NCBI GenBank assembly: GCA_964413375.1
Contig: CAYPSI010000113.1
Coordinates: 4,664 to 68,663 of the forward strand
Reading direction: 5' to 3'
Length of the DNA: 64,000 nucleotides
From: an uncultured Spirochaetales bacterium
GTDB lineage: Bacteria > Myxococcota_A > UBA9160 > SMWR01
The notes beneath the pieces were generated by a model. It worked only from the letters and a program-made list of their open reading frames with translations. It was not told where the DNA came from and did no database searches. Both the position numbers and the translations under genes were made by a program. Shown here in pieces: positions 43,592 through 63,396 of the stretch. Within the stretch, counting starts at the first letter, position 1. Each line of letters begins with the position of its first letter.

Positions 43592-43632
43592 CTCCGCTCG
43601 GCTTCGCCTCGCTGCGCGGCCGCTTCGCGGCC
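43592..43632 (+). repeat. GC-rich intergenic repeat, copy A
   Basis: ctccgctcggcttcgcctcgctgcgcggccgcttcgcggcc. The 3' part forms GGCCGC-ttc-GCGGCC. It lies between sufT and the MFS gene. Confidence 0.7.
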
Positions 43633-43651
43633 TTGCTAGCGTGCGGCCTCC

Positions 43652-44767
43652 GTGATCGCACTCGCCTTCGCTGCGTTCCTGCTCTTCGGGGTGATGCTCG
43701 TCCTGGTGGGCGCGAACCAGGCCGAGCTGGCGCGCGACCTCGAGCTCGATCTGGCGGGCTCGGGACTTCTCGTCTCGCTGCTCTCGGTGGGGCTCGGCGT
43801 GGGCGTCCTCGGCGCGGGGCCGCTCGTCGACCGCGTGGCGCGCCGCCCGCTCTTCGTGGCCGCGACGCTCCTCGCGGCGGCGGCGCTCCTCTCGATCGAT
43901 CGCTCGATGGGGCTCGCGCGCGCGGGCCTGCACCTCGCGGCGATCGGCGTCGGGCTCGGCGTCTTCGAGACGCTGCTCAACGTCGCGGTGGGCGAGCTCC
44001 ACGGCGCGCGCGCAGCGAAGCCGCTCAGCTTCGTGCATGCCGCAGCAACGCTGGGCGCGATGTCGGGTCCGGCGCTCGCGGCCTGGCTCGCAGCCCTGGG
44101 CGACTGGAGCTGGAGCTTTCGCGCGCTCGGCGCGGGTCACCTGCTGCTCGCCGCGGCCGCGTTCGCGGTGCCCTTCCCGCCGCACGCCCGCAGCGTGCGC
44201 GCAGCGGGCTCGGGCCTGCTCCCGCCCGGACTCGCCCGCGCGCTCTTGCCCTTTGCGCTGATCTCGTTTGCGTACGTGGGCATCGAGACGGCGCTCAGCG
44301 TGCTCGCGGTTCCCTATGCGACGCAGACACTCGGTCTGGCGGAAGAGCATGGCCTCGCGGCGATCAGCGCGCTGTGGGCGGGGATGCTGGCCAGCCGCCT
44401 GGCGCTGCTGCTCGCGCGCGGTGCGATCGACGCGCGCTACCTCGTCTTTGCCGGGGCCGCTGGCGCGCTCGTACTGGGCGTCGGTGTCGCCGCGCGGCTC
44501 GGACCGCTCGAGCTCGTCTTCGGCGCGACCGGCGCGGCGCTCGGCGTCGTCTTCCCGCTGATGGTGGCGCTCGCCGGCGAACGCGCCGGGTTCGCTCGCG
44601 GCACCGCCACCGGTCTCGTCGTCGGCGCCGGTGCGCTCGGCGGCTTCACCCTCCCCTGGCTCCACGGCGCCCTCGGCGACGCCGTCGGTCCAGGCCTGGC
44701 GGTGGGCAGCCTCGCGGGATGGGCGGGCCTGGTGGCGGGCGCAGCGTGGGCCGCGCGGCGCGCGTAG
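43652..44767 (+). CDS. MFS transporter
   Basis: GTG start. About 12 hydrophobic helices. The loop 2-3 motif is GPLVDRVARRPLF. Confidence 0.8.
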   Translation: MIALAFAAFLLFGVMLVLVGANQAELARDLELDLAGSGLLVSLLSVGLGVGVLGAGPLVDRVARRPLFVAATLLAAAALLSIDRSMGLARAGLHLAAIGVGLGVFETLLNVAVGELHGARAAKPLSFVHAAATLGAMSGPALAAWLAALGDWSWSFRALGAGHLLLAAAAFAVPFPPHARSVRAAGSGLLPPGLARALLPFALISFAYVGIETALSVLAVPYATQTLGLAEEHGLAAISALWAGMLASRLALLLARGAIDARYLVFAGAAGALVLGVGVAARLGPLELVFGATGAALGVVFPLMVALAGERAGFARGTATGLVVGAGALGGFTLPWLHGALGDAVGPGLAVGSLAGWAGLVAGAAWAARRA

Positions 44768-44772
44768 CTTGC

Positions 44773-44792
44773 GGCGAAGCGCGCAGGCTTCG
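44773..44792. terminator. Hairpin GCGAAGC-gcgcag-GCTTCGC in a 31-nt convergent gap (repeat-derived, copy B)
   Basis: A 7-bp perfect stem read directly, between the MFS stop (44767) and the rSAM stop (44799). No T-tract. Confidence 0.35.
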
Positions 44793-44798
44793 CGTGCG

Positions 44799-46385
44799 CT
44801 ACTCGGCTCCCGCGTGGATCCCGGCCGAAGCGGGCTGCGCAGGCCGCTTCGCGCGAGGCCCGACGCCGCCCGACGAGCGCCGCAGCACGAAGGCCGGTAG
44901 CGCGTTCGCCCCCTGCCCCATCGAGTGCTCGTAGGCAACGGACGCAGCCGAGGCGTTGAAGGGAATGTCGAGCCTGCGGCGCACGTCGCGCTCGACCCAA
45001 TCTCGCATCTCGACGAGCTGCGCCGCCGAGAGAAAGTCGGTGAAAACGTAGGATCGATAGCCGCTGTCCGGATCGCCCTTGTAGTACTCCGCGACCTCCG
45101 AGAAATCGACCTCGTAGGCGTGCAGGCGGTCTCCGCTTTTCTTTGCGGTGTAGGTCCACACGCCCGGCTCGCTGGGATGCGCGATGGCCTCGTCGTAGTA
45201 GGGCGTGCCGGGGTAGGTCGTGATGATCGTGCAGTCGAAGTCGTCCGGCTTCGCTTCGACCAGCCAGTCGCGTACCGCCCGGATCGTCTCCTCGCTCTCC
45301 CCGGGGTGACCGACGGACATCAAAGCCTTCACCTTGAGCCCCGCCGCACGAGCCGTCTGCACCGCCCGCGTATTGTCCTCGAGGGTGGCGCGCTTGTTGA
45401 TGTTGTCCAGGATCCGGGGCGAGGCGGCCTCGAAGCCGCACAGGATCCAGCGGAAGCCGGCGCGGAACATCGCCGCGGCCTGCTGGGCCGTGAAGAGCTC
45501 CGATTTCACGAAGCCGCGGAGCCGGAAGTCGACGCCGAGCCGCGCCTGTAGCTTGCAGAGCTCTTCGAGCAGCTCGAGCAGCTTGGGGCTCACGTTGAGC
45601 TCGTCGTCGTAGAACATGAACCCGGTGTAGCCATAATCCCGATGCAGGTGCTCGACCTCGGAGATGATCGACTCGACGCCTCGCACGCGGATCGCCCGCA
45701 AGGTGCGCGAGTTCCTGCCGCCGCAGAAGCCGCAGCCGAAGGGACAGCCGAGCTGACCGATCAGGCTCGTCGAGTTCCTGCCTTCGATCGTGTAGTGGTA
45801 GCTAGACGCATCGACGAGGTGGCGAGCCGGGAAGGGGGTGCGCTCGAAGTCGCTGTTGCTCAGGAACATGCCGTTCTTCGGATCGTCGGCGTCGATCAGC
45901 TTCGGCGCGTCCGCGGCGAGCGCATGGAGGACCGCACGCTCGCCGTCTCCCGAGACCAGCACGTCGAAGATCTCCGCCATCCGCGCAAAAGCCGCGTGGG
46001 CGCGAGATTCCCTCTTGGCGCGCTTCTCGAGCTTCACGGCCGAGGAGACGAGGGTCACGTGGGGTCCGCCGAGGATCAGGCGTAGCTCGGGCCTGAGTTC
46101 GCGCGCGCGGCGCGCGAGCGCCACCGCGGCCGGCAGCTGGGGCGTCGTCGTGGTCAGCGCCACGACGCGGGCCGTCGTGCTGCGCAGGTGGGCTTCAAAG
46201 GCCTCGACGTAGTTCTTGATGCCGGAGAGATCGAGCATCTCGACCGTGAGGCCCGCCTGCTCGAGCACCGCAGCGACCTTCAGGATCCCGAGGCTCATGA
46301 AGACGCGCTCGTCCAGCAGGAAGGAGGACGGCGGGATCACCAAGCAGACGCTCTGCGGACGCACGAGAACGGGCGGCCGGGACAT
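44799..46385 (-). CDS. B12-binding-like radical SAM protein (second one in window)
   Basis: ATG at 46385 (MSRPPVLVRPQSVCLVIPP...). It has an N-terminal Rossmann-like module and the cluster motif GQLGCPFGCGFCGG. The 720-aa track ORF is over-extended. Confidence 0.85.
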   Translation of the reverse strand: MSRPPVLVRPQSVCLVIPPSSFLLDERVFMSLGILKVAAVLEQAGLTVEMLDLSGIKNYVEAFEAHLRSTTARVVALTTTTPQLPAAVALARRARELRPELRLILGGPHVTLVSSAVKLEKRAKRESRAHAAFARMAEIFDVLVSGDGERAVLHALAADAPKLIDADDPKNGMFLSNSDFERTPFPARHLVDASSYHYTIEGRNSTSLIGQLGCPFGCGFCGGRNSRTLRAIRVRGVESIISEVEHLHRDYGYTGFMFYDDELNVSPKLLELLEELCKLQARLGVDFRLRGFVKSELFTAQQAAAMFRAGFRWILCGFEAASPRILDNINKRATLEDNTRAVQTARAAGLKVKALMSVGHPGESEETIRAVRDWLVEAKPDDFDCTIITTYPGTPYYDEAIAHPSEPGVWTYTAKKSGDRLHAYEVDFSEVAEYYKGDPDSGYRSYVFTDFLSAAQLVEMRDWVERDVRRRLDIPFNASAASVAYEHSMGQGANALPAFVLRRSSGGVGPRAKRPAQPASAGIHAGAE

Positions 46386-46523
46386 AAGGCGGCTCCCAGG
46401 TCGGGGGAGGGGAGCAGCAAGCCTATCAGGCGACGCGGGATCGGCCAGATTGGCGCGCTTCCCGGCACTTCGGCGGGCACCCGCGAGGCGACCGCATCGG
46501 CCGCAGGGTATTCTCCGGCCGCG

Positions 46524-47471
46524 ATGGCCGTCCGCATCCGAAACGTCGACACGGGCACCTATCCGTGTGTTTTCCACCACGCAGGTGGCGACTCGATCTG
46601 CCGCGCCGGTCTCGAGCTGAAGCGGAACTTCTTCGACGTGATCGGGGAGCCGGACCGCCACTTCCACTTCTCGAAGAACGGCCGGGTCTTCGGGCTCGAG
46701 AGCTACCGCTGGCCGCGCCCGGCCCCGACCCTTCGCAAGCTCCCGAAGCTCTCGATCGTCACCTTCACGAGCTTCCGCTTTCCGGGCAGCGCGGAGCTCT
46801 CGCTGCATCACCAAGGAGTGCAGGTCGACGTGATCCGCCCTCCCGGCCCGTGGAGGAACATCCGGAAGATCACGCTGATGCGTCAGTACCTGGAGACGGT
46901 GGACACCGAGTACGTGCTCTGCCTCGACTCCCACGACGCCTTCGTGACAGAGGACCTGCATGGGATCGTCCCCGCGTTCGAGAAGCTCGGTTGCCGGATG
47001 CTGGTGCAGGCGGACTCACACGACTGGCCGCAGATCCCCGGAAACCGCGAGTTCTACGACCGCATCGCCGGGGACCAGCGCCCCCTTCGCTACTTGTGCG
47101 GGGGCATCTACATCGGCGACGTCGCCTTCCTGAAGCGCTTCTTCGATCTCTCGCTCGAGACCGAGCCTGTGCTCCCGAACGACGATCAAGGTCCCTACAA
47201 GATGGTCTTCGAGCGCCTCCACCCCGACTGCCAGCTCGACTATCGTTGCGAGCTCTTCCAGTCGCTGACCGACTACCGCGATCCGCGGCGCAGCGACCGC
47301 TTCAAACCGGTGGACCACAACCTCGAGCTCCAGGTGCGCAGGGATCGCGCTCCCGAAGCCTCCGCGCGGCAGCTGACGCCCGGCAAGCTGCGAGCCGCCC
47401 TGCCCTACTTCCTCGGTCGCCTGCTCGATCCGCTGGCCGAGCGCCTGAGTCCGCGCCCACGCGAGAAGTGA
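46524..47471 (+). CDS. Hypothetical protein, possibly GT-A-fold glycosyltransferase-like (DxD-like DSHD)
   Basis: ATG at 46524. LSIVTFTS...YVLCLDSHDAFV...YLCGGIYIGDVAFLKRFF resembles the nucleotide-sugar-binding half of GT-A enzymes. The family assignment is weak. Confidence 0.55.
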   Translation: MAVRIRNVDTGTYPCVFHHAGGDSICRAGLELKRNFFDVIGEPDRHFHFSKNGRVFGLESYRWPRPAPTLRKLPKLSIVTFTSFRFPGSAELSLHHQGVQVDVIRPPGPWRNIRKITLMRQYLETVDTEYVLCLDSHDAFVTEDLHGIVPAFEKLGCRMLVQADSHDWPQIPGNREFYDRIAGDQRPLRYLCGGIYIGDVAFLKRFFDLSLETEPVLPNDDQGPYKMVFERLHPDCQLDYRCELFQSLTDYRDPRRSDRFKPVDHNLELQVRRDRAPEASARQLTPGKLRAALPYFLGRLLDPLAERLSPRPREK

Positions 47472-48832
47472 GCGGGCTTCGCCACGATCTTCCGGCTGGG
47501 ATCGTCGAGTGGGTCGCGCGGACCGGGCGCGGCGAGCTCACACGCCTCGAACGGCACGTGGCGCGCCGCGAGGCCTGGATCGTCGATGTGACACGCGACG
47601 ACGGCTCCGTGCTCGAGTGCTTCCTGCGCCTCGAGCGCGAGCCGGATCCCGGCAGCCCCTGGTCGCTGCGCAAGGAGACGAAGATCGTCGAGGCCCTCGG
47701 AGGGACTTCGGTTCCCGTGCCGAAGGTGTACGGGGTGAGCGACGCGCTCCACTGCACCCTCTTCGAGCGGGCGCGCGGGCGGAGCGACCTCGACGCACTC
47801 TCCGACCGCCGCCAGCAGCGCAGCGTGATGGAGGATTTCATCCGGGTGATGGCACGCATGCACACGCTCGACCTCGACGCGCTCGGGATCGCGCCGCAGA
47901 TGCCGGAGCTTCCGACGAGCGCCGAGCGCGCCGCTCTCGGTGAGGTGGAGCTCGTGCTGGCCCGCTGGAAGCCCTTCCTGCGCTCCTACACCGAGCCTCT
48001 GCTCCGCTACGGAGTGGACTGGCTGCGCCGCAACGCACCCACGCAGATCGCGCGCGTGAGCCTCGTGCAGGGAGACACGGGTCCGGGCAACTTCCTCTTC
48101 GAGGGCGACCGCGTGAGCGCGGTGATCGACTGGGAGTGGGGTCACCTCGGCGACCCTCTGGAGGACCTCGGAAACCTCTGCGTTCGCGAGTTCTGGAACC
48201 CCTGCGGTGGCCTCGCGGGCCTCTTCCGACTCTACGAGCGCGAAGCGGGGATCCCCTATTCGCGCGCCGCGGCGCAGTACTACCGCGTGCAGCAGAACGT
48301 CCGGGGCATGGTGGGCATCCACGCGGTGACCGCGCTGCTGCGACCGCGCGAGCCGGTCGCGTGGTTCCTCGCCTATCGTTACGTGGGCGACCGCGCCACC
48401 TGCGAGGCGCTGGCCGAAGCGATGGGCGTCGCGGTCGAGAGACCCGCGTTTCCCGACGACGACGCCCCCGGCGACGTGCTCGCCGAGGCCGCGCGCTTCG
48501 CGCTCGAGCACGACGTCCTTCCGGCGCTCGCGAGCCCTTTCGCCCGCTCGCGCGCCGCGGAGGCCCGGATTCTCGTCGAAGTCCTGGATCGCAGGCGGCG
48601 CTTCGGCCCCGCGCTCGCCGCGAGCGAACGCGAGGAGCTCGGCGCGCTGCTCGGCCGCCGGTCGCGCAGCCTCGCCGACGGGCTGCGCGCACTCGACCGC
48701 GCGATCCGCGCGCGCTCGCTCGGAGACGAAGCGGTCGTCCGCTACCTCACCCGCCGCGCCTGGCGCGACGAGTGGCTCCACGCCCCCGCAGCCGCGCTCT
48801 ACCCGAACCGGCGCTGGTCGGAAATCGACTAA
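47468..48832 (+). CDS. Phosphotransferase (APH/choline-kinase-like) family protein
   Basis: GTG at 47468 overlaps the upstream stop (GTGA). The Brenner-like motif LVQGDTGPGNFLF and IDWEWGHLGDPLEDL are present. Confidence 0.8.
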   Translation: MSGLRHDLPAGIVEWVARTGRGELTRLERHVARREAWIVDVTRDDGSVLECFLRLEREPDPGSPWSLRKETKIVEALGGTSVPVPKVYGVSDALHCTLFERARGRSDLDALSDRRQQRSVMEDFIRVMARMHTLDLDALGIAPQMPELPTSAERAALGEVELVLARWKPFLRSYTEPLLRYGVDWLRRNAPTQIARVSLVQGDTGPGNFLFEGDRVSAVIDWEWGHLGDPLEDLGNLCVREFWNPCGGLAGLFRLYEREAGIPYSRAAAQYYRVQQNVRGMVGIHAVTALLRPREPVAWFLAYRYVGDRATCEALAEAMGVAVERPAFPDDDAPGDVLAEAARFALEHDVLPALASPFARSRAAEARILVEVLDRRRRFGPALAASEREELGALLGRRSRSLADGLRALDRAIRARSLGDEAVVRYLTRRAWRDEWLHAPAAALYPNRRWSEID

Positions 48833-48866
48833 ACGGCCGCCGTCGATGCCCCGGATCGTGGCGCGA

Positions 48867-49655
48867 TCACGCGAGGGGGATCCGCAGCACGAACGCGGCA
48901 GTCCGGTGGCGGAAGCGGAGCCGACCCTCCGCGCGTTGCACCGCGAGATCGGCGCGATCGCCTTCGATCGATGCCTCGAGCAGCGAGCGGGTCGCGGCCG
49001 CCGCGTCCGCGTCGGGACCGCCGTGGGCGAGCCACTCCTCGACGTCGTAGTGCATCTCGGAGCCGAACTGGCTCGCGACCTCGAGACCCTGCGCCCGGAA
49101 GAGCTCTGAGAACTCCGAGAGCGGAAGCGCGCGCGCGTGAGTCGGATCGCAGAGGCGCTCGATGCGATCGTGGAGCGAGGCGCGCTCCGGCAGCTCCGAC
49201 CCGAGCAGGTCCGCGACGAGCAGCGTGCCGCCCGGCTTCGCGACACGAGTCATCTCGGCGAGCACGCGCGTCGGATCCGGGAAATGATGGAAGGCGGCAC
49301 GGCAGGCCACGATGTCCCAGCCGGCGTCGGGCTCGGGCAACGCGTTTGCGTCTCCCACCTCGAAGCAGGCGTTCCCGATCCCGCGCTCTTGCGCGAGTCG
49401 CCGCGCGCGCTCGACGAAAGCGGGCGTCGCGTCGATGCCGCGGGCGCTCGCGCAGGCCCCCGCGAAGGCCAGCGTCAGGAAGCCCGGCCCGCAGGCCACG
49501 TCGAGTACGCGGCTCTGGGGTTTCGCGCCGGCGAGTGCGACGAGCAGGCGCATGCCCGCCTCGTCGCGCGTCTGCTGCATGCCCGCGTAGGCCTCGGCCT
49601 GCCGCGTGAACTGCTCGCGCACCCGAGCAACGTGCGGGGGATCTGCCAATTCCAC
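48867..49655 (-). CDS. Class I SAM-dependent methyltransferase
   Basis: Motif I VLDVACGPGFLT. Post-I and II: ARGIDATPAFV, DIVACRAAFHHFPD, KPGGTLLV. The start is uncertain (GTG at 49655 preferred). Confidence 0.8.
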   Translation of the reverse strand: MELADPPHVARVREQFTRQAEAYAGMQQTRDEAGMRLLVALAGAKPQSRVLDVACGPGFLTLAFAGACASARGIDATPAFVERARRLAQERGIGNACFEVGDANALPEPDAGWDIVACRAAFHHFPDPTRVLAEMTRVAKPGGTLLVADLLGSELPERASLHDRIERLCDPTHARALPLSEFSELFRAQGLEVASQFGSEMHYDVEEWLAHGGPDADAAAATRSLLEASIEGDRADLAVQRAEGRLRFRHRTAAFVLRIPLA

Positions 49656-49681
49656 CTCCAGGGAGCGCGAACGCCAGGCGT

Positions 49682-50419
49682 TCAGCGCGGGACCATGCCG
49701 CCGTCGGCGAAGAGCACGTGGCCGGTGATGAAGCTCCCCGCGTCCGAAGTGAGCAGCAACGCCGGTCCCACCATCTCGTCGGGGTTCGCCATGCGCTTCA
49801 TGATCTGCATCCCGGTCATCCGGGCCCTGGCCTCGGGCGGGTTCTTTCGAACCATGTCGGTATCCACCGTTCCGGGCGAGAGCGCGTTCACGCGGATCCC
49901 GTAGCGGTCGAACTCGGCGGCCATCGAGCGCGTCGCGGCCACGAGCCCCGCCTTCCCGATCGCGTAGAGCGAGACCCTCGACGAGAACAGGAACGCGGCG
50001 CCGGACACCACGTTCAGCACGGCCGCATGCGCGCTCTTCTCGAGATGGGGAAGTGCCTCCTGCACCAGGAACACGGGCCCGCGCAGGTTCACGTCGAGCG
50101 ATTTCGCCCATGCCTCCGAGGTGTACTCGCCATGGGGCTGCGCGAGCGCGTTGGCCGCGTTGTTCACCACGACGTCGATTCCGCCGAAGGCAGAAGCCGT
50201 GCGCTGTACCAGCTCCCGGATCGCCGCGAGGTCGCCGAGGTGGCTCGGAACTGCGAGCACCTCGCCTCCCATCGCCCGCAGCTCGCGCGCCGTCTCATCG
50301 CAGGCTTCCGGCTTGCGGCTCGTGACGACGACCCTGGCGCCTGCCGCGACGTAGCCCTCGGCCAGCGCGCGCCCGATGCCGCGCGTCGCGCCGGTCACGA
50401 TCACCACGCGGCCGCTCAT
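49682..50419 (-). CDS. SDR-family oxidoreductase (FabG-like)
   Basis: TGATRGIG cofactor motif, NNAA, and the catalytic YAIGK (YxxxK). Confidence 0.9.
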   Translation of the reverse strand: MSGRVVIVTGATRGIGRALAEGYVAAGARVVVTSRKPEACDETARELRAMGGEVLAVPSHLGDLAAIRELVQRTASAFGGIDVVVNNAANALAQPHGEYTSEAWAKSLDVNLRGPVFLVQEALPHLEKSAHAAVLNVVSGAAFLFSSRVSLYAIGKAGLVAATRSMAAEFDRYGIRVNALSPGTVDTDMVRKNPPEARARMTGMQIMKRMANPDEMVGPALLLTSDAGSFITGHVLFADGGMVPR

Positions 50420-50528
50420 GTCGAAGAGCTGGCGGAGCTTGCGCTGGTCCAGGGCCGGTCTCCTCGCTTCCGATCACCCGGCCTGCGGGCGCTCGAGCGT
50501 CTGACGGCGGTCGAAGAGCGATGCCCGC

Positions 50529-51702: not shown

Positions 51703-51755
51703 CGATCGACTCTACCGCGGCCCTGGCATGGAACCACTGATGAAGGCACGCTGGG

Positions 51756-53330: not shown

Positions 53331-53432
53331 CTCATGATGGAAGCCGGCCCGGATCCCCGCGTCAACGCGCGATGATCGCGTGATATCCTCGCGCACCCGA
53401 GCCAAGCTCATCGGACAGGGGAGGGCGAGGCC

Positions 53433-54338: not shown

Positions 54339-54362
54339 CCCGCGCCACGCTCGTCCGATGGG

Positions 54363-54454: not shown

Positions 54455-54874
54455 CTAGAAATCGATCGGGCGGCCGTCGTTGAGCGCGACCCAGCCGCGC
54501 AGGATGCGGTAGAGCACCCACAAACCCGTCGCGACCACGAGGATCCACGCGAGGGGAATTCCAACCACCGTTGCGAAGAGCACGACGGCGACCGAAACCC
54601 ACAGGACCGCGAACCAGAAGGTCCGCAGCTGCCAGCTGAAGTGCGACTCGAGCCAGGTATCGCGCGCATCGGAGCGCTTTACGTAGTTGAGGATGACGGC
54701 GAGGATCGAGGGCCAGCCGGTCAGGAAGGCCGTCACCACCGCTGCCGACGAGATCACGCCCATCAGCGCGCTGAACGCGTGCAGCGCATAGAGGATGTGC
54801 GTGAGCCGCACGAGCCCTTCCGACGCGGGGTCCGTCGCAAGCGGAAGAGGAGACTCCGGGCCGCCCTGCATCAT
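54455..54874 (-). CDS. Small integral membrane protein (four helices; COG3671/DUF4870-like)
   Basis: THILYALHAFSALMGV, SHFSWQLRTFW and the C-terminal RGWVALNDGRP match a widespread small membrane-protein family. The family name comes from memory. Confidence 0.7.
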   Translation of the reverse strand: MMQGGPESPLPLATDPASEGLVRLTHILYALHAFSALMGVISSAAVVTAFLTGWPSILAVILNYVKRSDARDTWLESHFSWQLRTFWFAVLWVSVAVVLFATVVGIPLAWILVVATGLWVLYRILRGWVALNDGRPIDF

Positions 54875-54890
54875 CGTCTGCCGATTCTAC

Positions 54891-54925
54891 CCACGCTTCG
54901 CCTCGCGCGGAAGCCGAGCAGCGTG
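54891..54925. repeat. Partial or hybrid copy of the GC-rich repeat (copy I)
   Basis: gcttcgcctcgcgcggaagccgagc. It shares the gcttcgcctcgc core and forms GCTTC-10 nt-GAAGC. Confidence 0.4.
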
Positions 54926-54938
54926 CCCCCCGGGCCTC

Positions 54939-55553: not shown

Positions 55554-55610
55554 CGCCGCATTGGACTCCGGACCCGGCCCCGCGTCAATGCGTGTTATGC
55601 TGCCCCCGAC

Positions 55611-56576: not shown

Positions 56577-57087
56577 GACGGTCTGCCATCGAGACGAGCG
56601 TCGTGGCGACGAGGAGCCAGCCCATCGCGCGAACCAGCGCCGGAGCGGGCCAGCCGAGGCCGGCAGCGTCGCGCACGAGCGGCACCGCGACGGCTGCGTA
56701 ATACGCGATGCCGTTCCAGCGGCCGAGGCGGCTCCCCCGCAGCCCGCCCGCCTGCGTGCGCGAGGCGACCGCGTACTGGACGAAGGCCGCCGCGATGAGG
56801 ATGGGCAGGAGCAGCGGAAGCGCGCCCTGCGACGCGAGCGCTGCCGTGCCGGCCGTGACGAAGGTCGCATCCACGGCGTGATCGAGAACTCCTCCGAGCG
56901 GGGAGTCCTCCGCACGGCGGCGTGCGATGCGGCCGTCGGCCACGTCCGTGGCGACCGCGACGCCGAAGACGAGCGCCGCAACCGACGGAGCCTCCGCGAG
57001 GATCGCGCCGACGAGCGCCGGTACGAGCGCCAGGCGAAGCCCGGTCAGCCAGTTCGCAAGCGTGAACCATCGCCCGACCGCGACCAT
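56503..57087 (-). CDS. CDP-alcohol phosphatidyltransferase family protein
   Basis: The signature D-x2-DG-x2-AR-x8-G-x3-D-x3-D reads DVADGRIARRRAEDSPLGGVLDHAVD. Its 3' end overlaps the convergent UPF0104 gene by 74 nt. Confidence 0.85.
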   Translation of the reverse strand: MVAVGRWFTLANWLTGLRLALVPALVGAILAEAPSVAALVFGVAVATDVADGRIARRRAEDSPLGGVLDHAVDATFVTAGTAALASQGALPLLLPILIAAAFVQYAVASRTQAGGLRGSRLGRWNGIAYYAAVAVPLVRDAAGLGWPAPALVRAMGWLLVATTLVSMADRLRLLLRSRRAPGSPDAGRGDRSPR

Positions 57088-57149
57088 CGTCGCGCGACTC
57101 TACCGGCGGCCGCGCTACCCTGCCGCACCTTCGAAGGAGGCGATACGAG

Positions 57150-57515
57150 GTGTCGCGAACGAGAAGTTTTCGCGCGGGCAGGTTCGCGGCACTCGCGAGC
57201 GCCGCCCTCGCCTGTGGTGGCGGAGACGAGGGCGCCGGCCTCGACGAAGTCGCCGCGCGCGGGAAGACCGTCTACGAGAACGTGTGCACCGCCTGCCACA
57301 ACCGGGATCCGCGCGAGGGCGGTGCCCTCGGGCCCGCCGTCGCCGGGGCTTCGCAGGAGCTCCTGGAGGCGAAGGTGCTGCGCGCGGAGTACCCGCCCGG
57401 CTACACGCCGAAGCTCCCGAGCTCGACCATGCCGAAGTACGAGTACCTGGCCGGGAGCCTGGGGGACATCGCCGCGTACCTGGCGACGATCCCCCCAGCG
57501 TCAGAGCCTGACTGA
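57150..57515 (+). CDS. Monoheme c-type cytochrome lipoprotein
   Basis: AAGGAGG upstream of the GTG. Lipobox-like ALACGG. Heme motif CTACH with a distal Met candidate (STMPKY). Confidence 0.8.
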   Translation: MSRTRSFRAGRFAALASAALACGGGDEGAGLDEVAARGKTVYENVCTACHNRDPREGGALGPAVAGASQELLEAKVLRAEYPPGYTPKLPSSTMPKYEYLAGSLGDIAAYLATIPPASEPD

Positions 57516-57582
57516 CTCCGCTCGCCTGCGGCTCGCTGCGCGCTTCGCTTGCGCGACCGACTTCTCTCGCCTGCGGCTCCGC
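57516..57582 (+). repeat. GC-rich repeat, copy D1 plus truncated D2
   Basis: ctccgctcgcctgcggctcgctgcgcgcttcgcttgcg followed by cttctctcgcctgcggctccgcc. It fills the gap between two convergent stops exactly (57515 and 57583). Confidence 0.7.
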
Positions 57583-58302
57583 CTACAGCAGCACCGACTG
57601 CAGCAGGAAGAGCACGATCGTGAGCGCGAGCCCCGCGTGGATCGTCCCGGAGATGGTCGTGAGCGGCTTCTGGGTCTTCGCCCCGGGTCCGATCAGCGCG
57701 TTCGCCTCGACGGCGAGGATCGCGACGAGCGCGACGATCCAGTAGGCCCCGAGCGACCCGCCGCCCATGTCGAGCTCCTTGGTGAGCGTCGGGAAGTGGC
57801 TCGCCGCGGCCATGAAGAAGAGCATCGGGATCGAGAAGAGCGTGTTCACGCGCGAGGCCATGCCCGCCCGACCGCCGCGTGCGGCCGCCGCCGGATTCGC
57901 CTGGCCCCCCGCCGCAACGGTGTTCGCGTTCGCGATCACCACCTGCTGCGCCGGCCAGATCACGAACCAGACGTTCGCCCACATGAAGGTTCCCAGAATC
58001 CCGCCCGTCAGGATCCGCGTCATGTAGCCACCGCCGAGCGGCGCCCCTTCGTGGCCGAGCTTGGTGAGCACGATCAGCCAGCCGGTGAGGAAGGTGAACA
58101 TGGCGCCCCAGCGAAACCACCAGAGCGCGTTCGGCACGAGGCCGCGCGTCATGGCGCTTTTCGCGGTGCCGCCGAGCTCGCTCCCGAAGAAGGGCGTCTG
58201 GACGAAGTTGAAGTAGTAGAGGATCCCGATCCAGGTGATGCCTGCGAGGAAGTGGAACCAGCGGAGCAGGAAGTACCACCCCTCCATGCTGAAGATCTCC
58301 AT
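57583..58302 (-). CDS. Membrane protein resembling the N-terminal membrane domain of urate hydroxylase PuuD
   Basis: ATG at 58302. WYFLLRWFHFLAGITWIGILYYFNFVQ resembles the PuuD-family opening. 239 aa with no cytochrome c domain. The family call is from memory. Confidence 0.6.
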   Translation of the reverse strand: MEIFSMEGWYFLLRWFHFLAGITWIGILYYFNFVQTPFFGSELGGTAKSAMTRGLVPNALWWFRWGAMFTFLTGWLIVLTKLGHEGAPLGGGYMTRILTGGILGTFMWANVWFVIWPAQQVVIANANTVAAGGQANPAAAARGGRAGMASRVNTLFSIPMLFFMAAASHFPTLTKELDMGGGSLGAYWIVALVAILAVEANALIGPGAKTQKPLTTISGTIHAGLALTIVLFLLQSVLL

Positions 58303-58391
58303 GCGCCCTCCTCCAGTATGCGTCGCCCGCGCGGGGCAGCGCGGCGCCAGTGTACCCCCGATCGCAACGAATGCAGGAGCGTTCTTCGGGA

Positions 58392-59324
58392 TCAACCCGG
58401 CGGCTCGAGCGCGCGCGTGGCGATCCTCCCCCAGCCGAGTCGATCGAAGAGCTCCGCCACCCGGCTCGGATCCGGTCCCCGCCGGCACAAGAGCGAGAGC
58501 TCCGAGCGCAGTCCGGGAACATCGCTGCGCAGCCGCGCGAGGTCGCGCGTGCGAAGCGCCCGCTCGCGATGCACGGCCACCCGCTGCGCGATCCGGATGG
58601 CGCCGCGCACCGCGACGCCCTCCCAGGCCGCCGGCTCTTCGGGAATCGCCTCGATGCGCCCGAAAGCCTGCAGCGCCGCAGCCGCGCTCTTCGCGCCTAC
58701 TCCCGGCACGCCGGGCAGGTTGTCTACGACGTCTCCCACGAGGCCGAGATAGTCCGGGATCTGCTCCGGATCGACGCCGAAGCGGCGGCGCACGCCGTCG
58801 GCGTCGAGGGTCTCAGCGCGCCCGAAGTCGTGAACCAGGACGCGGCCGTCCTCGCGCACGAGCTGGCAGAGGTCCTTGTCCGATGTCACCACCACGGCGC
58901 TCGCACCCTGCGCCAGCACCCCGGCCGCGAGCGTCGCGATGCAGTCGTCCGCCTCGAAGCCCGCTGCCTCGCAGGTCACCAGGCCGATCGCCTGCGCGGC
59001 AAGGCTCGCGAGCTCGAACTGCGGCATCAGATCCTCCGGGGGGTCGCCGCGCTGTGCCTTGTAACCCGGCTCGAGATCGTTGCGGAAGCTCCGCATCGAG
59101 TGGTCGAAGCAGACCGCCACGTGCGTGGCCGCCGCCTCGCGCAAATAACGCAACAGGGTGTTGGTGAAGCCGTAGGCCGCATGCGTCGGCATTCCGTCGG
59201 GCGCATGCATCGGCGGCAGCGCATGGTAGGCCCGAAAGACGTAGACCGAGGCGTCGATCAGGTGAACGACGGGTTCGTGAACTTCGCTCGGCTTCACCTC
59301 GCTGCGCGCTTCGCTTGCGTGCAC
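58392..59324 (-). CDS. 5'-3' exonuclease / flap endonuclease (Pol I N-terminal-domain family)
   Basis: LIDASVYVFRAYHA, FEADDCIATLA, VVTSDKDLCQLV and the H3TH segment GVPGVGAKSAAALL. The only canonical starts (GTG at 59324 or 59297) lie inside repeat E. Confidence 0.85.
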   Translation of the reverse strand: MHASEARSEVKPSEVHEPVVHLIDASVYVFRAYHALPPMHAPDGMPTHAAYGFTNTLLRYLREAAATHVAVCFDHSMRSFRNDLEPGYKAQRGDPPEDLMPQFELASLAAQAIGLVTCEAAGFEADDCIATLAAGVLAQGASAVVVTSDKDLCQLVREDGRVLVHDFGRAETLDADGVRRRFGVDPEQIPDYLGLVGDVVDNLPGVPGVGAKSAAAALQAFGRIEAIPEEPAAWEGVAVRGAIRIAQRVAVHRERALRTRDLARLRSDVPGLRSELSLLCRRGPDPSRVAELFDRLGWGRIATRALEPPG

Positions 59325-59362
59325 TTCGCTCGGCTTTGCCTCGCTGCGCGCTTCGCTTGCGG
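59282..59362 (+). repeat. GC-rich repeat, tandem copies E1 and E2 (42-nt period)
   Basis: E1 is cttcgctcggcttcacctcgctgcgcgcttcgcttgcg. E2 is cttcgctcggctttgcctcgctgcgcgcttcgcttgcgg, identical to copy G over 39 nt. Confidence 0.85.
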
Positions 59363-59376
59363 CACCTCTCGGCCGG

Positions 59377-61095
59377 CTAGGCCCGGCCGCGCTCCTCGAA
59401 GACGCGTTCCGCCACCTCGCGGGCAGCCTTCTGCAGCTCGAGGTTGCGGCTCTCGCGGGTACGCCGGCGCACGAGCTCGACGCGGCCCTCGGCGAGGCCC
59501 TTCGGCCCGACCGTGAGCCGATAGGGGATTCCGATCAGGTCGGCGTCGTTGAACTTGACTCCCGGGCGCTCGTCGCGATCATCGAAGAGCACCTCGATGC
59601 CCTCCTTCACGAGCGCGTCGTAGATTCCGCCGGCCGCTTCGGAAGTGGCGACGTCCTTGGGGTTCAGCAGCGTGAGCACCACCTCGTAGGGCGCCACCGG
59701 CAGCGGCCAGGCGATACCGGCTGCGTCGGCGCAGCGCTCGGCGACGGCCGCCATGCAGCGCCCGATCCCGATGCCGTAGGAGCCCATCACGATCGGACGC
59801 GAACGGCCGGCCTCGTCGAGGACCGCGGCGCCGAGCTTCTCGCTGTAGCGCGTCCCGAGCTTGAAGATGTGGCCGACCTCGATGGTCTTCTGCACGGCCA
59901 GGCCCGCCTCGCACATCGGGCAGGCCTCGCCGTCGCGCACGCCGCGCAGGTCCAGCCACAGATCGACGCGGATGTCGCGCGTCACATCGACTCCGCGGAG
60001 ATGGAAGTCGTCGCGATTGGCGCCCGTCAGCATGTCGCGCCGGCCCTCGAGCGTCAGGTCCGCGATCACGCGCGGGCCCGAGACACCCACCGCGCCGAGA
60101 CTCCCGGCGGAGGCGCCGAGCGCGGCGCGGATCTCCTCGTCCTTCGCGGGGCGCGCCTCGCTCGCGCCGAGGCCGTCCTTGAGCTTCTGCTCGACGAGGG
60201 CGTGGTCACCGCGCAGCAGCACGAGGACCGTCTCGCCGCCTGCCACGTAGACGAGAGTCTTGATCTGTCGCTCGGGGGGCGCGCCGCCCGCGAAGCTCGC
60301 GAGCTGCTCGATCGTGCGCTGGCCCGGCGTCGGAAAGGCCTCGGGCGCCGAGAGGCCCGGCCCGTCCTCGAGTGCGGGCAGCTGCGAGCGCGCCTTCTCC
60401 ACGTTCGCCGCGTAGCCGCAGGCGGCGCACGCGGCCACCCAGTCCTCGCCGGCATCGCTCGGCACCATGAACTCGATCGATTCGCTCCCGCCCATCGCAC
60501 CCGAGGAGGCCTCGACCGCGAGCGGGTCGAGCCCGCAGCCGGCGAAGATCTTGCGGTAGGCCTCGAAGTGGCGCTGGAAGGCGGCGTCGAGACCCTCGGC
60601 GTCGAGATCGAGCGAGTAGGAGTCCTTCATCACGAACTCGCGCACGCGCAAGAGTCCCGATTTCGGGCGCGGCTCGTCGCGGAACTTCGTCTGGAGCTGG
60701 TACCAGAGCTGAGGAAGCTGGCGGTAGCTGCGCAGCTCCGAAGCGATCTGCGTGAAGACCTCCTCGTGCGTCATCCCGAGCGCATAGCGTCCGCCCTTGC
60801 GGTCCTGGAGGCGGAACATCTCGTCGCCCATCGTCTCCCAGCGACCCGACCTCTCCCACAGCTCCGCCGGGTGCAGCGCCGGGAGCGAGAACTCCTGTCC
60901 GCCGATCGCGTCCATCTCGCGGCGCACGATGCGCCCGATCTTCGCGCACACGCGCACACCGAGCGGAAGCAGCGAGTACACCCCCGCGGTGAGCTGGCGC
61001 ACGTAGCCCGCGCGCACGAGCAGGCGATGGCTCAGCGCCTCCGCGTCGGCAGGGTCGTCGCGCAGCGTCGGGATGAAGGACCGGGACCAGCGCAT
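59377..61095 (-). CDS. proS: Proline--tRNA ligase
   Basis: ATG at 61095 with GGAGGC upstream. MRWSRSFIPTLRDDPADAE, HEEVFT, FRDEPRPKSGLLRVREF (motif 2), and GIGIGRCMAAVAE (motif 3 region). The 998-aa track ORF is over-extended. Confidence 0.95.
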   Translation of the reverse strand: MRWSRSFIPTLRDDPADAEALSHRLLVRAGYVRQLTAGVYSLLPLGVRVCAKIGRIVRREMDAIGGQEFSLPALHPAELWERSGRWETMGDEMFRLQDRKGGRYALGMTHEEVFTQIASELRSYRQLPQLWYQLQTKFRDEPRPKSGLLRVREFVMKDSYSLDLDAEGLDAAFQRHFEAYRKIFAGCGLDPLAVEASSGAMGGSESIEFMVPSDAGEDWVAACAACGYAANVEKARSQLPALEDGPGLSAPEAFPTPGQRTIEQLASFAGGAPPERQIKTLVYVAGGETVLVLLRGDHALVEQKLKDGLGASEARPAKDEEIRAALGASAGSLGAVGVSGPRVIADLTLEGRRDMLTGANRDDFHLRGVDVTRDIRVDLWLDLRGVRDGEACPMCEAGLAVQKTIEVGHIFKLGTRYSEKLGAAVLDEAGRSRPIVMGSYGIGIGRCMAAVAERCADAAGIAWPLPVAPYEVVLTLLNPKDVATSEAAGGIYDALVKEGIEVLFDDRDERPGVKFNDADLIGIPYRLTVGPKGLAEGRVELVRRRTRESRNLELQKAAREVAERVFEERGRA

Positions 61096-61188
61096 GCAAG
61101 AGCCTCCTTCCGCATGGCTCCGGGGGGAACGCCGCGAAGCTAGCCCCCTTCCACGAGCCTTGCCGCACGCCGCGAGGAGGCGCGGCCA

Positions 61189-61230
61189 GGCCGCGAAGCG
61201 GCCGCGCAGCGAGCCGAAGGCGAGCGAAGG
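61189..61230 (-). repeat. GC-rich repeat, copy F (inverted orientation)
   Basis: The reverse complement ccttcgctcgccttcggctcgctgcgcggccgcttcgcggcc closely matches copy A, including the GGCCGC-ttc-GCGGCC hairpin. Confidence 0.75.
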
Positions 61231-61241
61231 CTCAGGCCGGG

Positions 61242-62417
61242 CTAGAAGCGGATCGGGAGCGCGGCGAAGCCGAAGAAGAACTCCGAGCGGATCCGCACCG
61301 CGCGATCCGCCAGGACCTCGTACTCGGGAACGCGCGCGAGGAGCTCCTCGAGCAGCACGCGCCCCTCCATCCGGGCCACGTTGTGGCCCAGGCAGCGGTG
61401 CGTCGCGTGACCGAAGGAGAGGATGCGGCGCGCGCGGCGCAACACGTCGAAGCGGTCGGCGTCGGCGAACTCGCGCTCGTCGCGATTGGCACAGGCCCAC
61501 AGGAACATCGCCTTCTGCCCGGGGCGGAGCGTCTCGCCGTGGAGCGCCACCTCCGCGCGCAGCGTGCGTCCGAGCATCTGCGTCGGCATTTCCAGGCGCA
61601 GCGCCTCCCAGAAGGCATCGGGGGCGAGGCCCGGATCGGCGACGACGCGCGCGCGCTGCTCGGGGTTCCGCGCGAGCTGGTCGATGCAGCCGGCGAAGAC
61701 TTTCGGGAGGGTTTCCGTCCCGCCGACGACGAGGAGCGTGAGATTCGAGAGCAGGTCCTCGTCCAGCAGCGGGCGCCCCTCCACCTCGAACGCGAGCAGG
61801 CGCTCGACGATCCCGTCGCGATGCGGGCGGACACGCCGCTCGGCGACCCACTTCGCGAGATAGTCCCGGAGCAGGCTCCCGGCCGCCTGCCCGGCTGCCG
61901 TCTGTCCCCGCGAATCCGGCTCGCGGTGGAAGCTCGCGTTCACGTTGCCCGCGAGCAGGTCCGCATCTTCGAGCGGGATGCCGAGGATCCTGCACGCCAC
62001 GCGCACGCTCACTCGCATCGCGAGATCGTGGATCACGTCGAGCTCGCCGCGCGGGAGGGCCTCGTCGAGGAGGCTCGCGGCGAGCTCGCGGGTCGACGCC
62101 TCGAGCTCGCGCGCCGCCTGCGGCATGAAGAAGGGGGCCAGTTGCTCGCGAAGCCGCGTGTGAATGGGGGGATCCTGCACCGCGAGCGAGCTGCCTCGCT
62201 CCGAAAAGTCCTGGCCGAGCAGCAGCTCGATCGTCGTGACGCCGTCCGCGGCCACGAAACGCGGGTCGGCGCAGGCGTTCCACACGTCCTCGAAGCGGGA
62301 GAGGAACCAGCAGTCGAACTCGGGCAGGTAGAAGGCCGGCGCGTCCGCTCGCAAGTGCCGATAGGTCGGCCACGGATCGTCGCAGATCGCAGCCGAGAAG
62401 GGGTGGTAGTCGACCAT
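61242..62417 (-). CDS. Cytochrome P450
   Basis: Heme-thiolate loop FGHATHRCLGHNVA. ExxR (EALRLE) and I-helix VVGGTET. Confidence 0.9.
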   Translation of the reverse strand: MVDYHPFSAAICDDPWPTYRHLRADAPAFYLPEFDCWFLSRFEDVWNACADPRFVAADGVTTIELLLGQDFSERGSSLAVQDPPIHTRLREQLAPFFMPQAARELEASTRELAASLLDEALPRGELDVIHDLAMRVSVRVACRILGIPLEDADLLAGNVNASFHREPDSRGQTAAGQAAGSLLRDYLAKWVAERRVRPHRDGIVERLLAFEVEGRPLLDEDLLSNLTLLVVGGTETLPKVFAGCIDQLARNPEQRARVVADPGLAPDAFWEALRLEMPTQMLGRTLRAEVALHGETLRPGQKAMFLWACANRDEREFADADRFDVLRRARRILSFGHATHRCLGHNVARMEGRVLLEELLARVPEYEVLADRAVRIRSEFFFGFAALPIRF

Positions 62418-62423
62418 TGCCGC

Positions 62424-62462
62424 TGGCCGAAGCTAGCGCAGCGGGCGGACCGCCGAAGCGGG
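62424..62462 (-). repeat. Possible degenerate copy of the GC-rich repeat (copy H)
   Basis: The reverse complement cccgcttcggcggtccgcccgctgcgctagcttcggcc keeps the cttcg...cgctgcgc...gcttcgg skeleton. Confidence 0.35.
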
Positions 62463-62463
62463 A

Positions 62464-63396
62464 TCAAGCCTGGTCGAAGGGCGTCCCCATCGACACGCAG
62501 GCATCGGCGAACGCGGCTTCGAGCTTCGCGAGCACGGGGCCCCGAGCGCCGTCGCCGATCGGGCGGCCGTCGAGCGAACGCACGCCGACGAGCCCGGCGC
62601 CACTGCCGGTGAGGAAGCATTCCTGTGCCGCGAAGAGGTCGAAGCGGCCGAGGCTGCGTTCGCAGCACGGGATGCCGAGCGCGTGGGCGAGCTCGAGCAC
62701 GGTCGCGCGCGTGATGCCCTCGAGCGCACCGTCGCTGGCGGGAGGCGTGCGGAGCTCTCCCGAGCGCACGACGAACACGTTCGCAACGGTCGCCTCGGCA
62801 ACGAGCCCGGCGGCGTTGAGCAGCAGTGCCTCGTCGGCGCCGCGCATTCGCGCTTCTTGCTTGGCAAGGACGTTGTTCAGGTAGTTGAGGCTCTTGACTC
62901 GGGGATCGAGCACGTCGGGCGGCGGCCGCCGCAGGCTCGACGTGACGAGATCGATGCCGCGCCGGCGCTTCTCCTCCGGATAGAGGGTGATCTGGTCTAC
63001 GAGGCACACGATCCGGGCCGGGCCGCAGGGAAGCGGGTCGACACCGAGGGGGCCCTCACCGCGTGTCACGAGCAGCCGGACGTAGGCTTCGGGCGTCGCG
63101 TGTGCGCGCACGGTTTCGAGCACGATGCGGCGCAGCTCCGCCGGCGAGACCGGGAGCTCGAGCGCCAGCGCCTTCGCGCCGATCGCGAAGCGGGCGAGAT
63201 GATCGTCGAGGCGGAAGACGCGCCCGCCGCGCACGCGGATGCCCTCGAAGAGGCCGTCGCCGTAGAGGAGCCCGTGGTCTCGCACCGGAATCCGCGCCTC
63301 GTGTGCGGGAAGGATGCGACCCTCGAGCCAGCAGAGCGCACCGGCCCGGTGAACTTCGCTCGGCTTTGCCTCGCTGCGCGCTTCGCTTGCGGTCAT
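62464..63396 (-). CDS. ilvE: Class-IV aminotransferase (branched-chain amino acid aminotransferase-like)
   Basis: RDHGLLYGDGLFEGIRV, KSLNYLNNVLAKQEA, ALEGITRATVLELA. The ATG at 63396 overlaps the IclR stop (ATGA). The first 15 codons are repeat copy G. Confidence 0.8.
   Translation of the reverse strand: MTASEARSEAKPSEVHRAGALCWLEGRILPAHEARIPVRDHGLLYGDGLFEGIRVRGGRVFRLDDHLARFAIGAKALALELPVSPAELRRIVLETVRAHATPEAYVRLLVTRGEGPLGVDPLPCGPARIVCLVDQITLYPEEKRRRGIDLVTSSLRRPPPDVLDPRVKSLNYLNNVLAKQEARMRGADEALLLNAAGLVAEATVANVFVVRSGELRTPPASDGALEGITRATVLELAHALGIPCCERSLGRFDLFAAQECFLTGSGAGLVGVRSLDGRPIGDGARGPVLAKLEAAFADACVSMGTPFDQA
63354..63392 (+). repeat. GC-rich repeat, copy G (inside the ilvE-like reading frame)
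   Basis: cttcgctcggctttgcctcgctgcgcgcttcgcttgcgg. It is read on the minus strand as TASEARSEAKPSE. Confidence 0.85.

Follow-up and report, generated by a model that had tools for sequence, protein, structure and literature searches.

A 64,000-nt stretch of DNA from an uncultured bacterium deposited as a member of the Spirochaetales (assembly GCA_964413375.1, contig CAYPSI010000113.1, positions 4,664 to 68,663; GTDB lineage Myxococcota_A; UBA9160; SMWR01), which we will henceforth refer to as the window, carries in its right-hand part a family of short, two-hairpin repeats that is non-coding by origin, specific to a clade of uncultured Myxococcota (soil myxobacteria) and previously undescribed. 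The family shows recent insertion, tandem expansion and contraction, and exchange or remodelling of its hairpins. We consider it probable (at roughly 60%) that the element is a non-autonomous mobile palindromic repeat that resembles the repetitive extragenic palindromic (REP) elements of other bacteria such as E. coli.

The layout of the repeat was derived from an alignment of 157 pattern matches. We call the strand that reads CTYCGCTCG...CTTGC the F strand and its complement the R strand. On the F strand the unit consists, in this order, of tgRa, CTYCGCTCG, a first hairpin (hairpin 1; a 3-bp stem G-S-C/G-S'-C closed by a TNC loop), the linker TCGCTGCGCG (unpaired, invariant and 10 nt long, with three AGCGAR repeats on its R strand), a second hairpin (hairpin 2) and the terminal CTTGC. 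Units are 41 to about 60 nt long, the short form of 42 nt corresponds to 14 codons, and, as read from the sequence, none of the six frames of the element contains a stop codon. The 3' boundary is sharp at CTTGC and the 5' boundary fades across four weakly conserved bases. The unit, which is asymmetric, lacks terminal inverted repeats, and we found no flanking direct repeat beyond permutation expectation (i.e., no target-site duplication).

A sequence-only reading of the window had proposed a GC-rich dispersed repeat family in its right-hand 20 kb, and two independent searches bear this out. The pattern CGCTCGSCNNNNSCTCGCTGCGCG (20 specified bases) has eight exact matches in the window (+ strand at 43595, 54366, 54415, 57519, 59285, 59327 and 63357; - strand at 61203-61226), and when up to three mismatches are allowed it has nine, against 1.9 expected, a count reached by none of 100 shuffles; base composition (~70% G+C) alone does not explain this frequency. 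Building a profile of the family and scanning with it had been suggested as a check: an nhmmer profile of 89 copies taken exclusively from other genomes retrieved all eight full window copies (E = 1.4e-11 to 1.4e-6). A half copy, D2, followed at E = 0.03, after which scores fell sharply to chance level, the first match below D2 (E = 0.047) lying within the NifU coding sequence. A repeat search of the window separately recovered the direct-repeat family at the same positions together with an inverted pair formed by copies A and F. The eight full copies and the half copy, all within 43.6-63.4 kb, and three doubtful stretches are as follows.

Copy A: 43588..43636, + strand; pattern match, nhmmer E = 2.9e-7; 13-nt hairpin-2 insert GCCGC-TTC-GCGGC, CTTGC end at 43632-43636; in the co-directional gap between the FeS_assembly_P and MFS genes, F strand in sense.

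Copy C1: 54357..54405, + strand; pattern match, nhmmer E = 1.4e-6; full core, hairpin 1 GGC-GGA-GCC, hairpin-2 insert CGC-TTC-GCG, end CTCTC in place of CTTGC.

Copy C2: 54406..54454, + strand; pattern match, nhmmer E = 2.1e-9; forms with C1 a head-to-tail pair at a spacing of 49 nt; CTTGC end 2 nt from the stop codon (CTA on the + strand) of a small membrane-protein gene (54455-54874, - strand).

Copy D1: 57509..57553, + strand; pattern match, nhmmer E = 1.4e-11; full short form with hairpin-2 insert CTTCG, in a convergent gap directly 3' of the TGA of the upstream + strand open reading frame (ORF).

Copy D2 (half copy): 57556..57582, + strand; nhmmer E = 0.03 (match 57556-57579); 5' tail and hairpin-1 module only, abutting the stop codon of gene 57583-58302 (- strand).

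Copy E1: 59278..59319, + strand; pattern match, nhmmer E = 4.9e-10; short form with a broken hairpin 1 (GGC-TTC-ACC).

Copy E2: 59320..59362, + strand; pattern match, nhmmer E = 2.3e-9; short form whose hairpin 1 has a rare TTT loop; forms with E1 a head-to-tail duplication of 42 nt.

Copy F: 61185..61233, - strand; pattern match, nhmmer E = 6e-8; the sole window copy whose F strand is on the - strand; hairpin-2 insert GCCGC-TTC-GCGGC, end CTGGC, 12 nt past the stop codon of a cytochrome P450 gene.

Copy G with its inserted flank: 63340..63391, + strand; pattern match, nhmmer E = 1.6e-10; hairpin 1 at 63362-63370, hairpin 2 at 63376-63390.

Stretch B: 44773..44792, strand not assigned; a GCGAAGC/GCTTCGC palindrome within the 31 nt that separate the convergent MFS and radical-SAM genes; no nhmmer match.

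Stretch I: 54891..54925, strand not assigned; resembles GCTTCGCCTCGC.GCG by eye only; best nearby nhmmer E = 24.

Stretch H: 62424..62462, strand not assigned; between the Aminotran_4 and P450 genes; no nhmmer match.

Several features of these copies had been noted by eye and stand. Copies occur in both orientations (copy F on the - strand), singly or in tandem (the C, D and E pairs), and some lie flush with stop codons (D1 at 0 nt from its TGA, C2 and G at 1-2 nt from a stop). Over 40 nt E2 and G do not differ at all in spite of the 4 kb between them, and the GCCGC-TTC-GCGGC variant is common to A and the reverse complement of F, which are 91% identical over 45 nt. Likewise, the apparent lack of copies in the first 43 kb agrees with the profile search, which, besides the NifU match, gave no score under E = 0.1 within 1-43 kb. 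Two claims have to be narrowed. At least eight clear and three partial copies had been counted; eight are full members, and the profile misses B, I and H. B has the 13-mer GCGAAGCGCGCAG, which also stands on the reverse strand of D1, E2 and G; judged from this, it is at most a fragment of the element rather than a detectable family member, and could be a hairpin-2 remnant or an unrelated terminator-like hairpin. I and H each have shorter pieces in common with the element, as judged by eye; H, which has the same sequence in a strain contig (L115, see below), is possibly a decayed relic that is no longer detectable. The family had also been said to occupy most intergenic gaps of the right-hand 20 kb, which is an overstatement: right of 43 kb the element is present at 6 of the 21 gene junctions, and to the left at none of 35 (Fisher p = 0.0017, for a split chosen post hoc); between 54 and 63.4 kb about half of the junctions have it. 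No other repeat family was found in the gaps of the window.

Both hairpins, which had been described as small G+C stems with 3-nt loops, are supported by covariation. The search pattern left the two S positions of hairpin 1 free, allowing all four combinations, and yet they were complementary in 138 of 140 copies (82 C..G and 56 G..C; the other two were G..G, and C..C did not occur). In hairpin 2 the base GCGCG/CTTGC is invariant and contains a G.T pair and a C.T mismatch. Above it stands a palindrome of 3 to more than 30 nt whose length and sequence vary from copy to copy (79 distinct inserts). Inserts of 5-17 nt are nearly all perfect palindromes with a 3-nt loop, built on many unrelated stem sequences, and this loop explains an excess of odd insert lengths. 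Anchored pairs of hairpin 2 were Watson-Crick in 73% of cases against 35% after shuffling. Specifically, in the class with 13-nt inserts 99.3% of cells were paired (80% when shuffled, 31-54% in slid controls), six pairs were altered on both sides and none on one side only, and the covariation score was 0.424 against 0.10, a value reached by none of 500 shuffles. Since mismatch-type pairs were about equally rare (G.T 19, A.C 22), the helices behave as DNA palindromes and not as G.U-tolerant RNA helices. The loop is TNC in 86% of hairpins 1 and 77% of hairpins 2, so that on the R strand both loops read C-GNA-G, an exceptionally stable DNA triloop of the d(GCGAAGC) type. In one copy, at 2690-2754 of the related locus L198 (see below), hairpin 1 has grown and a stem of 10 bp (CCCGCGAGGG-AAG-CCCTCGCGGG) replaces the triloop form, so both hairpins tolerate stem growth.

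A pattern scan of species-representative genomes yielded at least 114 loci. The full element with its CTY prefix was present in at least 43 assemblies at species level. These were produced by different groups with different methods, and some have Mb-scale contigs, which excludes an assembly artefact, a concern raised by the sequence-only reading. Of these, 42 are uncultured metagenome-assembled genomes (MAGs) labelled Myxococcota, Deltaproteobacteria, Myxococcales or "Spirochaetales", and the remaining one is a Longimicrobiaceae MAG in which the core has another outer architecture. The matches listed further included 16 single, core-only matches in unrelated phyla, which have no CTY prefix and are probably due to chance. 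As to the "Spirochaetales" label, it is probably an error, because one of the MAGs that carry it (CAZUYC, locus L038) is syntenic with the window at ~82% identity and because the only named relatives of the prolyl-tRNA synthetase (ProRS) encoded in the window are from Myxococcota and Deltaproteobacteria MAGs. As a control we used 80 metagenomic loci with ProRS relatives (~0.9 Mb, many of high G+C; ProRS identity at most 75% among the matches listed), and the element was present in one locus only. Related loci (~0.85 Mb) held 169 relaxed matches, of which ~140 were full-type copies. The density of the element is about 1 per 8-15 kb. Rfam gave no relevant match for the whole window at gathering thresholds and nothing relevant for 54.3-63.5 kb at E up to 10. 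In the literature searched, neither core 11-mer was printed and there was no report of REPs, REP-associated tyrosine transposases (RAYTs) or MITEs (miniature transposable elements with inverted repeats) in myxobacteria.

Two variant arrangements were seen in these genomes. The Longimicrobiaceae MAG (CBDCDN, Gemmatimonadota) has the 27-nt hairpin-1 core CTACGCTCGCCTACGGCTCGCTGCGCG twice (L008 ~6419-6442, L104 ~1052-1075), where the arms of a perfect 17-bp inverted repeat (GAACGGCGGCCGCTTCG...CGAAGCGGCCGCCGTTC) enclose it within their loop; it may represent a related family in another phylum, or a transfer. In L049, from the MAG closest to the window, there are two composites of inverted copies (3000-3260 and 6360-6600) with ~75-nt arms and a ~130-nt spacer, a layout that is absent from the window and resembles MITEs or REPINs (inverted REP doublets; Bertels and Rainey 2011).

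The evidence for mobility comes from a site-by-site comparison of five related sequences or sets with the window: L115 (a strain contig, 98% identical), L197 (ProRS 95% and DNA ~92% identical), L198 to L200 (ProRS 91% identical) and L038. Occupancy of the sites differs among these relatives at 82-95% identity, with copy numbers as follows.

Site G: one copy in the window, none in L197 or L198 (the L038 sequence does not reach the site).

Site F: one copy in the window, none in L197 or L198.

Site E: two copies in the window, one in L197, none in L198 or L038.

Site D: one copy and a half copy in the window, three and a half copy in L197, one and a half copy in L198, none in L038.

Site C: two copies in the window, two in L197, none in L198 (the segment is missing in L038).

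No copy was detected at site E of L198, where a decayed remnant may be visible by eye. The truncated copy D2 occupies the same orthologous position in L197 and L198. Site F is also filled in the strain contig L115, with identical flanking coding DNA, and yet hairpin 2 there is CTCCG followed by CTTGC, as opposed to GCCGC-TTC-GCGGC in the window. The reverse case also occurs: L038 has three copies upstream of a cytochrome c-like gene where the window has none (57134-57199), and these (L038 3059-3290) are interleaved with reiterated hairpin-2 modules (GCGCGGCCGCTG/TCGCGGCC). Site G provides a pair of filled and empty alleles. The empty allele of L197 and L198 reads GTGAC|G|GCGCTC; the window has 52 nt (63340-63391) in place of the single G, a net gain of 51 nt or 17 codons, and the two alleles show no target duplication. 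Copies G and E2 agree at all 40 positions compared, the rare TTT loop included, and the single E copy of L197 carries the usual TTC loop; given these matches, the simplest history would derive G from the E array, at a distance of 4 kb, at a time when the lineages of the window and L197 had already separated.

The same sequences differ in gene content near the repeats. The segment 54325-54964, which comprises C1, C2, the gene for a 139-aa membrane protein (54455-54874, - strand, no Pfam match) and stretch I, is missing from L038 (705-709) and present in L197 and L198. The P450 gene next to ProRS (61242-62417, - strand) is present in the window, L115 and L197 (8559-9866) and absent in L198 to L200 (L198 9876-10001), and at the position of copy F in the window, L197 carries an additional Porin_O_P gene.

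Two of the eight window copies are read in frame within genes. The G insertion lies after codon 2 of the Aminotran_4 gene (62464-63396, - strand), 1 nt after the TGA of the IclR gene, and changes the N-terminus from V-T-A-L-C-W in L197 to M-T-ASEARSEAKPSEVHRAG-A-L-C-W in the window. The Aminotran_4 ATG at 63396 overlaps the upstream IclR TGA and is preceded at 5 nt by a GGGAGGG Shine-Dalgarno sequence; the window has no other in-frame start ahead of the conserved N-terminus. Copy E1, read on the - strand, forms codons 3-16 of a 5'-3' exonuclease gene (58392-59324, - strand; VH-ASEARSEVKPSEVH-EPVVHLIDAS), so that V-H-E-T-V-V-H-L-I-D in L197 corresponds to V-H-ASEARSEVKPSEVH-E-P-V-V-H-L-I-D in the window. 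The exonuclease ORF has 310 aa in the window and 296 aa in L197, a difference of one 42-nt unit, and its GTG start (- strand) is supplied by the GTGCAC tail of copy E2. Both insert peptides, ASEARSEVKPSEVH and ASEARSEAKPSEVHRAG, are absent from the L197 and L198 orthologues. With no stop codon in any frame and a short form of 14 codons (42 nt), the element would be tolerated within the first codons of genes.

Elsewhere the element favours the 3' ends of genes. We called genes by codon-position G+C and classified 137 elements by the gap in which they lie, with all gaps of at least 40 nt as background. Between co-directional genes, 43 elements were antisense to both neighbours (with a further 13 that seemed "intragenic antisense", which were start-codon miscalls) and 19 (plus 1) were in sense, against 243 background gaps for both senses together; 26 elements were in convergent gaps (background 51) and 13 in divergent gaps (background 100). 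The element is thus enriched in convergent gaps and depleted in divergent ones, i.e., it avoids promoter gaps. In the co-directional antisense class the CTTGC end lay at most 3 nt from the upstream stop codon in 12 of 43 cases, and the R strand was the mRNA strand about 2.8 times as often as the F strand in co-directional gaps and about 2.5 times as often overall. The neighbouring genes of the right-hand 20 kb have ordinary metabolic and housekeeping functions, those between inverted element copies are housekeeping genes, and the only recurrent neighbour families were common paralogues (e.g., short-chain dehydrogenases and acyl-CoA dehydrogenases). A terminator scan found no canonical U-tract terminators at the gene ends of the right-hand region.

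Much of this is shared with the REPs and bacterial interspersed mosaic elements (BIMEs) of Enterobacteria and Pseudomonas: these too are short, G+C-rich stem-loop units dispersed in many intergenic copies, placed after stop codons and in convergent gaps, single or clustered, forming lineage-restricted families, and with neither terminal inverted repeats nor target duplication. The resemblance that had been proposed from the sequence therefore stands as regards the stem-loops, both orientations, 3'-end gaps and polymorphism, and does not extend to the terminal tag, the alternation of copies or the single-hairpin layout. A REP is one imperfect palindrome of about 20-40 nt, whereas the present element has two hairpins with an invariant 10-nt linker, and the apical stem of its hairpin 2 (occasionally of hairpin 1) varies freely in length. 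Recent copying within the genome and the inverted doublets of L049 recall REPINs; however, only two of 19 adjacent clustered pairs were inverted, both in L049, the other 17 being direct (head-to-tail), and the replicating unit appears to be the single asymmetric element. The element behaves like a REP, yet we do not class it as one.

A plausible mechanism follows the same comparison. The unit would be handled as single-stranded DNA (ssDNA) by a hairpin-recognising HUH/Y1 enzyme, either a RAYT or one like those of the IS200/IS605 insertion sequences (ISs), encoded elsewhere in the genome; we infer this from the asymmetry of the unit, the hairpin near each of its ends, the lack of inverted repeats and target duplication, the Watson-Crick stems and the GNA loops. 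Slippage in replication and template switching at the palindromes would add changes in tandem copy number and remodelling of stems. Once inserted, the hairpins may, by analogy with REPs, block 3' exonucleases or affect termination, and copies may interfere with translation termination, as REPs reportedly do. That sites turn over even among close relatives speaks against conserved regulation of any particular gene; an effect at the RNA level would be compatible with the orientation bias relative to transcription and with the short distance to stop codons.

Several observations weigh against reading the element as a mobile, REP-like repeat. One end of a REP carries a conserved tetranucleotide, GTAG or CGTC (Di Nocera et al. 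2013, PMC3733652). This tag is absent from both strands of the element consensus, GTAG arising only through a TAC loop variant (14 of 142 copies), and clusters run head-to-tail and do not alternate as in BIMEs and REPINs. No transposase of any family was found by Pfam among all called genes of the 64-kb window, and thus no RAYT gene of the kind that REPs typically flank, which the sequence-only reading had suggested looking for. A RayT-like ORF or HUH...Y motif was likewise missing from ~0.9 Mb of element-bearing loci searched with phmmer, hmmsearch and a motif scan; this is a weak negative, and the RayT profile was narrow (the homologues of E. coli RayT returned were enterobacterial sequences only). 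The mobilising HUH/Y1 enzyme is accordingly hypothetical. The G insertion has 9 additional nt (CGGGCCGGT, R strand) that this reading does not account for. The folding energy of single copies did not differ from that of shuffles at 70% G+C (z-scores -2.5 to +1.0). Finally, orientation tracks gene direction (F strand opposite to the majority gene strand of the locus, 87:35, p = 3e-6) far better than local GC skew (71:51, p = 0.085), and with this bias an RNA-level or transcription-linked cause fits better than replication-coupled insertion.

An alternative that we regard as unlikely, though worth weighing in full, is a cis-acting RNA element selected by the host (a terminator without a U-tract, a 3'-end stabiliser, or an intercistronic hairpin for processing or translation control) whose spread is secondary. 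It would account for the 2.5- to 2.8-fold excess of the GNA-loop strand on the mRNA, for the pile-up of copies 0-3 nt from stop codons, for the fact that in many genomes the reverse strand ends 5-10 nt ahead of a Shine-Dalgarno sequence and start codon, for the missing canonical terminators, and for a linker that is invariant across at least 43 species. However, copies lie in both orientations in co-directional gaps and 13 lie in divergent gaps, next to genes that are functionally unrelated; presence at a given gene is not kept even at 87-95% genome identity, with 0 to 3 copies at one site; the helices show neither an excess of G.U over A.C nor one-sided changes; and no Rfam family matches.

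A narrower version of the mobile reading, which we put forward tentatively and hold to be improbable as a whole, is that the element is the substrate of an ssDNA-hairpin enzyme other than a classical RAYT that places copies right after a stop codon or stop/start overlap, so that it would parasitise the genome and at the same time bring about variation in the N-termini of proteins in this clade. If so, insertions and duplications that survive in gene starts would add the peptide ASEARSE(A/V)KPSEVH and even new start codons.

More doubtful is a minisatellite that changes through slippage, template switching and ectopic gene conversion only, with no dedicated enzyme. Its model would be the mycobacterial interspersed repetitive units (MIRUs) of Mycobacterium tuberculosis (Supply et al. 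1997), which reportedly are 40-100 nt long and form head-to-tail arrays at scattered loci between genes, with a copy number that varies between strains, and which are said to lie in frame, overlapping flanking stop and start codons, to be without dyad symmetry and to follow the orientation of the operon. The element shares the head-to-tail arrays (of 42-49 nt units), the copy-number variation between relatives and the in-frame units that overlap gene starts. Moreover, the reiterated hairpin-2 modules of L038 and the hairpin-2 swap between L115 and the window at an otherwise identical site would fit such a process, and template switching at quasipalindromes yields perfect palindromes. Unlike MIRUs, the element has two covarying hairpins and occurs in both orientations. 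Slippage also cannot seed a new locus, whereas G arose 4 kb from its nearest relative at a site without prior homology; the density of ~1 per 8-15 kb implies hundreds of dispersed sites, and the 3' boundary is sharp.

It is very unlikely that the copies serve to bind a protein that organises the chromosome, or some other DNA-binding protein, and are kept for nucleoid structure. BIMEs are sites for integration host factor (IHF) and gyrase, and the invariant linker with its AGCGAR repeats and the regional clustering (0 of 35 against 6 of 21 junctions) would suit such a role, but we saw no periodic or replichore-related pattern, orientation is weakly correlated with GC skew, sites turn over fast, and selection in hairpin 2 acts on the pairing of the stem and not on its sequence, which points to a folded single strand and not to recognition of a duplex. 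Chance similarity or assembly artefact, to which a ~70% G+C genome with many short GC-rich palindromes could give rise and which leaves B, I and H in a grey zone, is refuted for the eight full copies by the shuffled counts, profile E-values down to 1e-11 and at least 43 independent assemblies.

Two other mobile systems offer partial parallels. Miniature derivatives of IS200/IS605 elements (palindrome-associated transposable elements), like the ends of IS608, have asymmetric ends with subterminal hairpins, lack inverted repeats and target duplication, and imply ssDNA chemistry. An element of this type would have a fixed tetra- or pentanucleotide target and a parent IS whose tnpA gene lies between the same hairpin ends. 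For the present element no conserved tetranucleotide target was found (there is only a weak TGRA by the 5' end), and no parent IS with its ends was seen in the window or in ~0.9 Mb of related loci. Rickettsia palindromic elements are likewise palindromic, insert in frame into protein genes and add peptide segments, but they are 100-150 nt long and mostly intragenic, whereas here two of eight copies are in frame, at codon 3.

We also considered and rejected several other identities. A MITE mobilised by a DDE transposase would have terminal inverted repeats and a target-site duplication, neither of which is present. No T run follows any copy, and the terminator scan reported no intrinsic (Rho-independent) terminator at the copies. 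The spacing of CTTGC and TTGACT is not conserved, contrary to a sigma-54 or sigma-70 promoter; there are no cassettes and no spacers, as integron attC sites and CRISPR arrays would have. A replication-strand explanation of orientation finds no support at this scale (GC skew 71:51).

The element-free left part of the window contains three long clusters of genes, namely a TonB-dependent receptor with an ExbB/ExbD/TonB cluster (8650-17747, - strand), a cluster of LuxC/LuxE-like acyl reductase/synthetase genes with an aminotransferase (30288-33936, + strand) and a complete suf Fe-S operon (37445-43549, + strand). Junctions within these operons are mostly of at most 13 nt (a few span 49-265 nt), and their tightness may partly explain the absence of the element there. 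Separately, a leader of ~85 nt upstream of ProRS (61096-61180, - strand) is far better conserved than nearby intergenic DNA in L115, L197, L198 and L038. Its predicted fold would bring UUCC opposite the Shine-Dalgarno GGAA. No Rfam family matches this leader, which may be regulatory.

If the element is REP-like, Myxococcota would be a new host group for REP-type repeats, which are best understood in Gammaproteobacteria. Its architecture is distinct, with a pair of hairpins whose stems vary freely in length and whose loops read GNA on one strand, and the traces of its activity are unusually clean: a filled and empty pair of alleles, an identifiable donor at a distance of 4 kb, changes in tandem copy number, and the exchange of a hairpin at 98% strain identity. 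For work on the clade, the element is a sensitive marker for strain typing and a source of mis-annotated gene starts in high-G+C MAGs. Should the mobilising enzyme be found, the known range of ssDNA transposition systems would widen.

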